IMG/VR virus record: IMGVR_UViG_3300042260_000394
Strand: one strand, 5' to 3'
Source: an uncultured virus (IMG/VR IMGVR_UViG_3300042260_000394)
Lineage: Duplodnaviria > Heunggongvirae > Uroviricota > Caudoviricetes
DNA: 64,000 nt
The notes beneath the pieces were generated by a model. That model was not told the origin of the DNA. It saw only the letters and a list, made by a program, of their open reading frames with translations, and made no database searches. This document shows positions 611 to 25,961 of this stretch, in pieces. A program made the position numbers and the translations under genes. The stretch's first letter is position 1. The number at the start of each line of letters is the position of its first letter.

Positions 611-685
611 TGGTGCGATAGACGGGACTCGAACCCGCAATCTTGAGTTTTAGAGGCTCTTGCTATGCCATTCAGCTTCTATCGC
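611..685 (-). tRNA. tRNA with CUA anticodon (amber suppressor type), encoded CCA
   Basis: Acceptor stem GCGATAG/CTATCGC + ACCA; D-arm GCTG/TAGC; anticodon loop CT-CTA-AA (anticodon 651-653); 5-nt variable loop; T-arm GCGGG-TTCGAGT-CCCGT. The anticodon stem has A27.A43 and C31.A39 mismatches and position 8 is A. Confidence 0.85.
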
Positions 686-736: not shown

Positions 737-760
737 CAAAAGAAACCCGCCGAAGCGGGT
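737..760 (-). terminator. Rho-independent terminator downstream of the tmRNA locus
   Basis: ACCCGC-TTCG-GCGGGT followed by TTCTTTT. Confidence 0.85.
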
Positions 761-762
761 CT

Positions 763-838
763 TGAGTTTCTGTTACGAGGTATGTCTTACCCTAAGCGGA
801 GTTTAGGCCACTAATGCAAACTTTTTAGTTTGCATTTA
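763..838 (-). pseudogene. Displaced relic of a tmRNA tag-coding/3' segment
   Basis: TAAAT GCA AAC T AAA AAG TTT GCA TTA GTG GCC TAA reads as ANDKKFALVA* if 2 nt are restored. It is followed by a stop-codon helix and a GTAACAGAA motif paralleling GAAACAGAA in the intact copy. Confidence 0.75.
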
Positions 839-859
839 CTAAATAACACTGGAGGAACT

Positions 860-1252
860 ATGCAATATTTTACCTACTTATGGATTGACAAGTCTAGAAA
901 AATGTTTTACATTGGCATGCACGAAGGCTACGTTAATGACAATTATATATCATCTAGTAGATGGTTCAATGGCGAGTATCAGTATCGACCTAACGATTTT
1001 AAAAGAAAAGTACTTAAACTGTTTGACAATAGATCGTTAGCAAGAAAAGAAGAAGCAAGATTGCTTATGTTAGTTAAAGAGAATGAGTACGGTACTAGAT
1101 ACTATAACCTTAAAACAGGCAGGCCTAAGGGCACACCTGCATCAAACAAAGGGCAACCAATGACATTAGAACAGCGAGAAAAACTTAGTGCTGCCAAATT
1201 GGGGAAACCGTCTGCCAGAAAGGGTATTCCCAATAAAACAAAAGCTAGTTGA
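860..1252 (+). CDS. GIY-YIG (Seg-like) homing endonuclease with NUMOD3-type DNA-binding motif
   Basis: FTY...YIG motif, conserved E and YYN, C-terminal TLEQREKLSAAKLGK. GGAGG SD before ATG 860 and TAAATA at 840-845. Confidence 0.85.
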   Translation: MQYFTYLWIDKSRKMFYIGMHEGYVNDNYISSSRWFNGEYQYRPNDFKRKVLKLFDNRSLARKEEARLLMLVKENEYGTRYYNLKTGRPKGTPASNKGQPMTLEQREKLSAAKLGKPSARKGIPNKTKAS

Positions 1253-1589
1253 TTCTGTTTCCAAGTTCAACTAGCAAAACTCAGATGGGCCTAAATTAGG
1301 CGGCCATCAAAAATGCGTTATCATTTGCATTTAAAGGTTTTGCTTCTACGACCGGGAAACCCCAATCCTACGGCTTCTGCTTTGCCGAGCTGTCCACTTT
1401 GTTACTCTTTGCCCAATCGATCCTGTGTCAGGCCCATCAAAAGAAAACTAAAATTCAGGCTCTATGTCCTGGTCCCGAGTTCACACTCTTAAGGCACGTT
1501 GTACACCGTGTCTAATTTTCTTTTGGTGGACCTGGCGGGCACTGCCCCCGCGTCTTGAACTTATTTCTCATCGCTTCATACAGCAATAA
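1244..1589 (-). ncRNA. ssrA: Circularly permuted (two-piece) tmRNA, tag peptide ANDNAFLMAA
   Basis: Acceptor piece first (T-arm GCGGG-GGCAGTG-CCCGC, CAGGTCC-ACCA ending at 1524). Then an intervening segment 1436-1523 with complementary ends. Then the coding piece starting GGGCCTG at 1435, giving a G3.U70 alanine pair. Tag ORF 1296-1328. Confidence 0.93.
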
Positions 1590-1594
1590 CTTAT

Positions 1595-1623
1595 ATTATA
1601 TACTTATTTGGCCAGCTTGTCAA
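1595..1623 (-). promoter_or_regulatory. Consensus sigma70 promoter for tmRNA
   Basis: Perfect TTGACA-17 nt-TATAAT. Confidence 0.9.
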
Positions 1624-25576: not shown

Positions 25577-25912
25577 TTAAGCAAAAAGTTGTTGTGGTAC
25601 AGAGCCAAACAACGAATACAGTGTTCTACTCGGAGTAGAAGCAACTGCCAGTTTCATATTCTTCTTGGCCGCTTGCTTTTTATAATAGTCACGTGCAATC
25701 CTATTACGAACTGCACCGCGACTGTTGTTGCAAGCAAAGCATGCCGCTACTAAGTTTGAAGCCGCCTCAATCTTTTTATTACGGGGGCTTGCCCACTTGT
25801 CAAGCAGATGTTCTAGTGTTGCATGTTGCGGTGACTTTCTATCTTGATTCATTTCACAACTGCAATAATAACACCTGTTACCTTGCTTTTGAACTAATGC
25901 TAAAAGAGTCAT
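25577..25912 (-). CDS. HNH endonuclease
   Basis: CYYC...ATLEHL...SNLVAACFACNNSRG; AAGGA SD before ATG 25912. Confidence 0.85.
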   Translation of the reverse strand: MTLLALVQKQGNRCYYCSCEMNQDRKSPQHATLEHLLDKWASPRNKKIEAASNLVAACFACNNSRGAVRNRIARDYYKKQAAKKNMKLAVASTPSRTLYSLFGSVPQQLFA

Positions 25913-25961
25913 AACGGTTCCTTGACAAGCAGGACTTATTGACATTGCCTGTTTTGGTAAC

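Follow-up and report, generated by a model that had tools for sequence, protein, structure and literature searches.

The window, a stretch of 64,000 nucleotides, comes from a large myophage with genes for NrdAB, UvsX, UvsY, terminase, sheath and capsid. Close to its first letter, on the minus strand, lies a permuted ssrA gene of the two-piece kind, in which a CCA-ended acceptor piece stands upstream of a coding piece with the resume motif and the tag. For comparison we used L021, a near-identical phage that is free of the nuclease gene described below. The promoter and the 5' portion of the gene consist of the following elements:

1595..1623, minus strand: sigma-70-type promoter of ssrA, TTGACA-17-TATAAT, matching the consensus at 12 of 12 positions
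1524..1586, minus strand: acceptor piece of the permuted tmRNA gene with its CCA end at 1524 (Rfam RF04321), equal to L021 throughout
1436..1523, minus strand: intervening segment of the permuted gene, an insert in the Rfam alignment, identical to L021
1337..1435, minus strand: resident DNA forming the 5' part of the coding piece; putative left homology arm

The Rfam family tmRNA_permuted (RF04321) matched positions 1296-1585 on the minus strand with 103.5 bits, the gathering score being 47. The acceptor piece is host-phage DNA that lies outside the cassette, and in pairwise alignment the 5' part of the coding piece shows four substitutions relative to L021 and two relative to L031. None of the intron families in Rfam matched the window ssrA and the T-arm is unbroken in the Rfam alignment, which sets the gene apart from those that carry a group I intron of the self-splicing kind in the T-loop. 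The loop of this T-arm (1533-1549, minus strand) reads GGCAGTG, an alphaproteobacterial type, unlike the TTCGA-type loops of most relatives. With an alpha-type T loop and 3' ends of the beta type, the window ssrA looks chimeric beyond the cassette.

Behind the 5' part the gene possesses two 3' ends, with a nuclease gene between them on the opposite strand:

818..1336, no strand assigned: cassette of 519 bp where the empty allele has 27 bp, from pairwise alignment with L021; also present in L005
1296..1328, minus strand: replacement tag frame ANDNAFLMAA*, which has no GCA-YT at codons -4/-3 (read from the sequence)
1244..1275, minus strand: replacement tmRNA 3' helix with GAAACAGAA in its loop, followed by a T-run (inverted repeat; fold z -2.7)
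860..1252, plus strand: gene for a predicted Seg-like GIY-YIG endonuclease of 130 aa, antisense to ssrA (PHROG 314, fold, dN/dS)
851..855, plus strand: Shine-Dalgarno motif GGAGG (read from the sequence)
840..845, plus strand: late-promoter-like motif TAAATA, abutting the remnant head (count of its proximity to open reading frames in the window)
813..839, minus strand: remnant head GTAAAT-GCAAAC-N10-GCATT, a perfect 10-bp palindrome in the window (inverted repeat, alignment)
737..817, minus strand: displaced original 3' end with ALVA* codons, stop helix, GTAACAGAA helix and terminator, 100% identical to L021; putative right homology arm

The new tag is encoded by GCA AAT GAT AAC GCA TTT TTG ATG GCC GCC TAA (1328-1296, minus strand). 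The arms of the new 3' helix lie at 1244-1252 and 1267-1275, and the Rfam alpha_tmRNA match stops at 1244, where this helix ends. The stop codon (1250-1252) and last codons of the nuclease gene form the 3' strand of the same helix. The second segment spans 833-737 on the minus strand, with GTAACAGAA at 776-768 and a hairpin and T-run at 760-738, and gave a weaker Rfam match to beta_tmRNA (739-950, E = 1.1e-5). Tag, helix, reading frame, TAAATA, GGAGG and second segment all lie where the original prediction, made from this DNA alone, had placed them.

The 130-residue protein matches PHROG 314 (homing endonuclease) with an E-value of 5.7e-14, and the nearest annotated phage proteins, at 32-44% identity, are called 'Seg-like homing endonuclease'. 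The Pfam GIY-YIG profile (PF01541) stayed below threshold for the window protein (13.8 bits, cut-off 22.6, E = 0.074), and 12 of 71 family members gave a match at E ≤ 0.01. Residues Y17, G19, H21, E65 and N83 are invariant across the alignment of these 71 members, and presumably correspond to the catalytic positions of I-TevI. The predicted structure has a mean pLDDT of 83.7. Its best structural match in VIA-align is the I-TevI catalytic domain, with a middling Z of 7.9 (rmsd 3.0, 78 residues aligned), and GIY-YIG domains fill all of the top five rows; Foldseek gave I-TevI at all of its top three ranks with a probability of 0.92-0.99 but an E-value of 0.05-0.18. A sequence search of solved structures returned nothing significant, the placement coming from the fold searches. 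On account of the PHROG 314 match, the matches of family members and the fold, we assign the protein a predicted GIY-YIG fold. The protein had been described as GIY-YIG/NUMOD3, a label to be softened in both halves: GIY-YIG rests on the three lines just named, and NUMOD3 has no Pfam match in the window protein and appears in other members of the family (27 of 71). The tail available for site recognition is short and basic, with a pLDDT of 54-88. The dN/dS of the gene relative to that of L005 is 0.07, synonymous sites being saturated in most other pairs, and points to a family under purifying selection.

Expression of the nuclease would be late. Copies of TAAATA lie within 60 nt upstream of an open reading frame in 17 of 26 cases in the window, compared with 0 of 16 for TATAAA, and the motif behaves like the late-promoter motif of the window phage. 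On the gene's own strand no U-rich terminator follows the stop codon between 1253 and 1336 (plus strand), and the late mRNA may extend antisense into the tag frame.

Alignment with L021 defined the borders of the cassette. Between 817 and 600 the two phages are 100% identical, and between 1337 and about 1590 they are nearly so; position 1337, the last base common to both, marks the edge of the resident 5' part. From here L021 runs directly into an end of the stranded type, with the intact tag ANDSQFALVA. As L021 holds 27 bp where the window holds 519 bp (818-1336), the event was a replacement and not the 495-bp insertion between duplications that had been proposed. The comparison also indicates that the old tag was like ANDSQFALVA; ANDKKFALVA, as first read from the second segment, is ruled out by the aligned empty alleles, which give tags of the ANDSQFALVA/ANDSSFALVA type. 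The 10-mer TTTGCATTTA does occur at both 829-838 and 1324-1333, as reported, yet some exact 10-mer repeat was found in 57% of 500 dinucleotide shuffles of positions 450-1700, which is not beyond chance. We rejected it as a target-site duplication because the resume site of empty alleles reads TAAACGCAAA or TAACTGCAAA and 519 bp replace 27 bp. That the 3' end is duplicated follows instead from the 93% identity between 737-838 and the functional 3' end of L021.

Empty alleles are not confined to L021. We fetched 62 syntenic loci by the 568-aa gene upstream of ssrA and aligned the 20 nuclease-free ones that reach the coding piece. All 20 carry a whole tag behind the resume codon, of 10 codons in 19, mostly ANDSQFALVA, ANDSQFALAA or ANDSSFALAA, and in 17 (L021 and 16 others) BLAST matched the sequence that directly follows the 5' coding piece to the window's stranded end. 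The expectation that empty alleles read through the resume codon into an end of the 737-838 type with an intact tag was confirmed in 20 of 20. The new 3' end was present solely alongside the nuclease among 82 loci compared, and together with the empty allele of L021 this upholds the proposal that the cassette supplied a new tag and 3' end. As in gene-end replacement, the nuclease gene thus has a whole, chimeric target gene on one side and a stranded 3' fragment on the other.

The same cassette recurs in other phages. In L005 it shares the left junction of the window, with a new 3' end that is 99% identical and a protein that is 86% identical. The 5' ssrA of L005 is just 77-81% identical to the window, and the two have no flanking genes in common within 5 kb. 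A search for relatives of the protein yielded 129 among 132 candidates. The family was matched at 195 redundant loci, of which 175 were parsed as adjoining a permuted ssrA, representing 42 distinct antisense alleles and one sense allele (L146). The 20 unparsed loci comprise six distant Seg genes at other sites, away from ssrA (L018-L020, L373, L375 and L376), one parser miss (L130) in which ssrA is visible by eye, and 13 cut by the ends of contigs or loci. Rfam identified tmRNA at eight of the eight close nuclease loci tried and at nine of ten newly added distant ones; the coding piece of L319 was recognised by eye. In L146 the nuclease gene lies in sense orientation behind the ssrA terminator, the tag is of the FVL type without GCA-YT, and the contig ends inside the gene, which has an apparent sigma-70 promoter of its own. 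Among bacterial and archaeal genomes 18 pattern matches to the family were found and none was confirmed. A search for close relatives in annotated phage records gave best protein matches below 60% identity and, for the ssrA DNA, one 37-base match. Tandem stacks of cassettes were not seen.

Measured from the tag stop, the stop codon of the nuclease falls at -4 to 47 nt, within the 3' helix or upstream of it, in the 31 of 36 rows where a distance was measurable, which means that gene and passenger end overlap. At L010 and L123, and also at L102, L116 and L120, the entire tmRNA 3' helix is covered in antisense by the nuclease frame, whose end coincides with the tag stop codon or lies no more than 4 nt from it. 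Four types of 3'-end helix, A to D, are scattered over a FastTree phylogeny of the nuclease built from about 120 columns with two outgroups, which has weak internal support and serves only for this scatter; the scatter shows that the passenger end was exchanged many times. When occupied alleles were compared with the nuclease-free allele nearest in its 5' part, the latter was closer to the remnant than to the new end in 28 of 39, so that empty alleles with an end of the fragment type exist here as well as at the 17 syntenic loci. One comparison was tied, and in ten the nearest nuclease-free allele was closer to the new end, several of these ten having a deleted remnant helix. L328 and L329 have no remnant.

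Comparison of the alleles therefore defines a unit made of a replacement 3' end (resume site, tag and 3' helix) that overlaps an antisense gene for a predicted GIY-YIG protein with a late-promoter-like motif of its own. By alignment it is flanked by the resident 5' part on one side and, on the other, by the resident 3' end, which is now stranded; it appears in many unrelated phage backgrounds with a passenger end that has been swapped repeatedly. From these relationships we infer cutting, homing and expression of the nuclease. The unit is most probably an intron-less homing element: its target would be the tag-coding DNA of permuted ssrA genes in phages, and the 3' end that it brings would be immune.

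If the tag frame were the target, occupied alleles should differ from empty ones within it. GCA-YT at tag codons -4/-3 was found in 0 of 42 occupied alleles and 76 of 120 nuclease-free ones (Fisher p = 5e-15, uncorrected for kinship), a correlation in sequence that is consistent with resistant occupied and sensitive empty alleles. The count was anchored at the stop codon, because a left-anchored one placed some resume codons too far upstream, and 72 distinct alleles with less than 600 nt downstream were excluded. A smaller in-register count gave 0 of 29 against 52 of 79. A register-blind count (7 of 30 occupied, 57 of 78 nuclease-free) was superseded by these. Part of the correlation is confounded with 3'-end lineage: GCA-YT is present in 1 of 7 nuclease-free alleles of type A and in 0 of 11 of types B and C, and the motif is absent from 44 of the 120 nuclease-free alleles too. 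Within type D, the only helix type common to both groups, the motif occurs in 0 of 6 occupied alleles, equivalent to about three independent ones, versus 69 of 87 nuclease-free alleles (p = 2e-4). The escape forms comprise 19 codon pairs, among them TTG ATG and the synonymous GCT CTA, with GCA changed to GCT; CGC ATT and AGC ATT retain GCATT, moved by 1 nt. Ten distant members fetched after the motif pattern was formed all adjoin ssrA in antisense and all lack GCA-YT, and in seven of the nine that have DNA on that side the remnant holds or starts at GCAYT-like codons. The original prediction had the element invade at the resume codon. It was right about the tag end of ssrA, but the likely target takes in more than the resume codon, namely the tag-coding DNA as far as codons Ala(-4)/Leu(-3).

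A similar picture could be left by an ordinary free-standing Seg gene, if it cuts a distant neighbour and landed once, by illegitimate recombination, behind ssrA, the doubled 3' end being a hitchhiking scar. The cut sites of T4 Seg enzymes usually lie hundreds to thousands of bases away from the gene of the enzyme (PMC2988022, section 7), the 568-aa gene next to ssrA shares just 85% identity with that of L021 and might be such a target, L146 is merely adjacent to ssrA and in sense orientation, and 3'-end lineage accounts for part of the motif loss. However, the family stays at ssrA though its flanking genes change completely, the motif is kept in none of the 42 occupied alleles, having been lost via many codon changes and also within the shared helix type, and the remnants of two subfamilies begin at or contain the same codons. 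We regard this alternative as improbable and favour the tag-targeting homing element.

The remnant head offers a second view of the putative site. Its frame reads Ala-Asn-stop. In 33 of 33 distinct remnants of the close subfamily GCAAAC and GCATT are separated by N10, compared with N12 in native alleles; the first letters of the head are conserved by construction of the search pattern, the spacer is not. This difference fits a two-part site with a spacing that matters. The missing 2 nt of the old segment had been noticed before, and are present, but as a trait of the family they do not reflect recent decay. Similarly, the view that the old allele was left to decay is accurate in that the old 3' end is stranded, whereas the head is conserved as one end of the element and forms a palindromic version of the site that is 2 bp shorter. 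Throughout the close subfamily the head is an imperfect palindrome touching the late promoter. The head pattern alone is not specific, 10 of its 38 matches being without nuclease and without ssrA, and its absence from part of the distant subfamily means that it is not essential.

What the head might do is suggested by its position. It may be that it serves as an uncuttable operator through which the nuclease represses itself, by analogy with the I-TevI operator (described in the accessible text of PMC2988022), an idea that we hold to be possible yet somewhat doubtful. Alternatively, the head may form an RNA hairpin that masks the second resume codon in read-through transcripts. The mean folding energy of the hairpin is equal on both strands, and the count of G-U cells, 35 versus 11, favours the tmRNA strand. 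A different use of the second segment would be as one of two alternative functional 3' modules, either tag being available to the tmRNA by read-through or processing. The stop helix, the GTAACAGAA helix and the terminator of this segment are indeed intact, a state that recent arrival of the cassette explains in the window, given the 100% identity to L021. The second frame encodes just Ala-Asn-stop, at a distance of 495 nt and beyond a helix that has a T-run, and in many relatives the part with the stop codon, or the helix as a whole, is gone, which makes this the least credible of the readings we considered.

Under the homing reading, the nuclease would be made late during mixed infection and would cut the ssrA of a cassette-free co-infecting phage, within the approximately 27 bp that reach from the resume codon as far as codons Ala(-4)-Leu(-3), at a site of the predicted form GCAAAC-N12-GCAYT. 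Phage recombination (UvsX and UvsY are encoded in the window) would repair the break from the donor, with pairing on the 5' coding piece at the left and on the stranded old 3' end at the right. The recipient would acquire a functional tmRNA whose new tag is uncuttable, and the old end of the recipient would turn into the next right-hand homology arm. The change of tag would then be the cost of immunity and not its purpose. As the new and old tags both end in small hydrophobic residues, each is expected to mark proteins for proteolysis, and the swap is probably near neutral. The element is widespread and probably active. Tag types named in these phages are FLM, YRI, YSL, WAL and tags of 25-30 residues. 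The last are predicted in permuted tmRNAs of the nuclease-free loci L541, L557, L572, L574, L580 and L584, for example ANADTFEFGALNFTGNTVGAANEGRFALAA, and Rfam confirmed tmRNA in the four long-tag loci tried.

The predicted site is not restricted to phages. In bacterial chromosomal ssrA genes we found at least 120 matches, mostly in the betaproteobacterial Rhodocyclaceae and Burkholderiaceae, and among the bacterial site matches listed the tag is ANDERFALAA in 91 of 120. Some betaproteobacterial assemblies have two contigs with the tag pattern (L431 and L433; L423 and L456; L428 and L440), suggesting a second ssrA copy or a fragment. It is conceivable that the nuclease is kept mainly for the benefit of the phage: by cutting the chromosomal ssrA of the host, or that of rival phages, it would hand ribosome rescue to the immune tmRNA of its own phage. 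The frequency of the site in betaproteobacteria and the strong purifying selection on the nuclease would agree with this. Yet only 2 of 74 and 2 of 73 parsed loci carry the nuclease in two samples drawn blind to it, one of them being the window's own phage, and some nuclease-free alleles have cassette-type ends (L220, L233 and L240), as expected after gene loss or in donors. Late expression, too, fits homing, and we judge a benefit to the phage very improbable as the reason for which the gene is kept. A wider reading combines several of these ideas: that the tag frame is both target and immunity cassette of phage elements resembling the WHO elements of yeasts, that the enzyme also cuts host ssrA, that the shortened remnant is an operator, and that homing drives tag diversity. 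We think this unlikely; if it were true, ribosome rescue and tag identity would pass to the immune phage RNA.

T4 SegB is reportedly an intronless homing endonuclease in a tRNA cluster. The window element resembles the T4 Seg genes in protein family, late promoter and presumed homing by break repair, as far as they are covered in the accessible text of PMC2988022. According to PMC2988022 (section 7) those genes are intergenic and cut at distant sites, whereas the window element splits its target and would repair it with a passenger gene end. Closer in manner of working are the WHO elements of Torulaspora and Lachancea yeasts, which combine a nuclease gene with a resistant end of the upstream gene (Coughlan et al. 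2020, PMC7282813). According to the accessible parts of that paper they are likewise intron-less, with the resistant 3' end upstream, the old end downstream as a recombination arm and a chimeric target gene; they differ in having an intein-like, zinc-finger protein, a protein gene (FBA1) as target, meiosis as the setting and tandem clusters. The window element is a 130-aa GIY-YIG protein gene, antisense, overlapping its passenger end and placed in a phage RNA gene, and on these features we rejected membership of the WHO family proper. Cleavage was demonstrated experimentally for WHO (PMC7282813, accessible parts), while the window element is known by comparison of sequences.

Fungal mitochondrial mORFs provide another parallel. 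Foreign C-termini occur in Allomyces atp6 and in Glomus atp6, atp9, cox2 and nad3 (PMC3630166, accessible parts), where an endonuclease ORF (GIY-YIG in Glomus atp9) imports a foreign gene end and the native end lies downstream. There the targets are mitochondrial protein genes and the ORF is co-transcribed, unlike the window, where the target is the tmRNA tag frame plus 3' helix and the nuclease promoter lies on the opposite strand. The homing endonucleases reported in tmRNA genes in the accessible text of PMC11915505 are of the LAGLIDADG type and reside in self-splicing group I introns of the T-loop. They too are homing endonuclease genes that invade ssrA, but the window gene is intron-free and its putative site is the tag frame. 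A two-piece tmRNA from a permuted ssrA is also known from the aquatic Methylophilales myophage Melnitz (PMC9004378), and the accessible part of its description mentions no endonuclease or doubled 3' end at ssrA. The element is thus one that works like WHO and mORFs, is a member of neither, and is Seg-like by protein. We found no published description of such an element in tmRNA among the titles and abstract beginnings listed, a scope that leaves aside subscription papers and supplements, nor is it described in the accessible parts of PMC4392139, PMC4131195 and PMC1564403; some of these genes may be contained in the tmRNA database supplement of PMC11915505. Within this scope the original statement that no description for a two-piece tmRNA was known stands, while the mechanism has precedents in other genes.

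If the homing reading is correct, gene-end replacement, known from protein genes of yeasts and fungal mitochondria, extends to phages and to an RNA gene, and a homing nuclease can inhabit a conserved gene that has neither intron nor intein. It would also supply a concrete selective reason for the variation of phage tmRNA tags. Phage ssrA genes would be chimeras, which affects host prediction and phylogeny based on ssrA. Were host ssrA cut as well, this would bear on why lytic phages carry tmRNA.

The neighbourhood of the locus holds some further features. Beyond the cassette lies one more RNA gene:

611..685, minus strand: tRNA gene with a CUA (amber) anticodon, the downstream neighbour outside the cassette, identical in L021

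A tRNA with this anticodon follows directly after ssrA in L021, L029, L051 and L052 and is kept in divergent relatives. Amber recoding found no support in the window, where TAG ends 2 of 72 open reading frames and read-through adds just 6-14 codons. The intervening segment of the permuted ssrA ranges from about 90 nt to more than 1 kb among relatives (L032, 5805-7000; L049/L050; L031; L317), and seems to hold open reading frames. A second, unrelated nuclease gene of the HNH/Endo VII-like type, encoding 122 aa, is located at 25577-25945 on the minus strand of the window, upstream of an RNA ligase gene.
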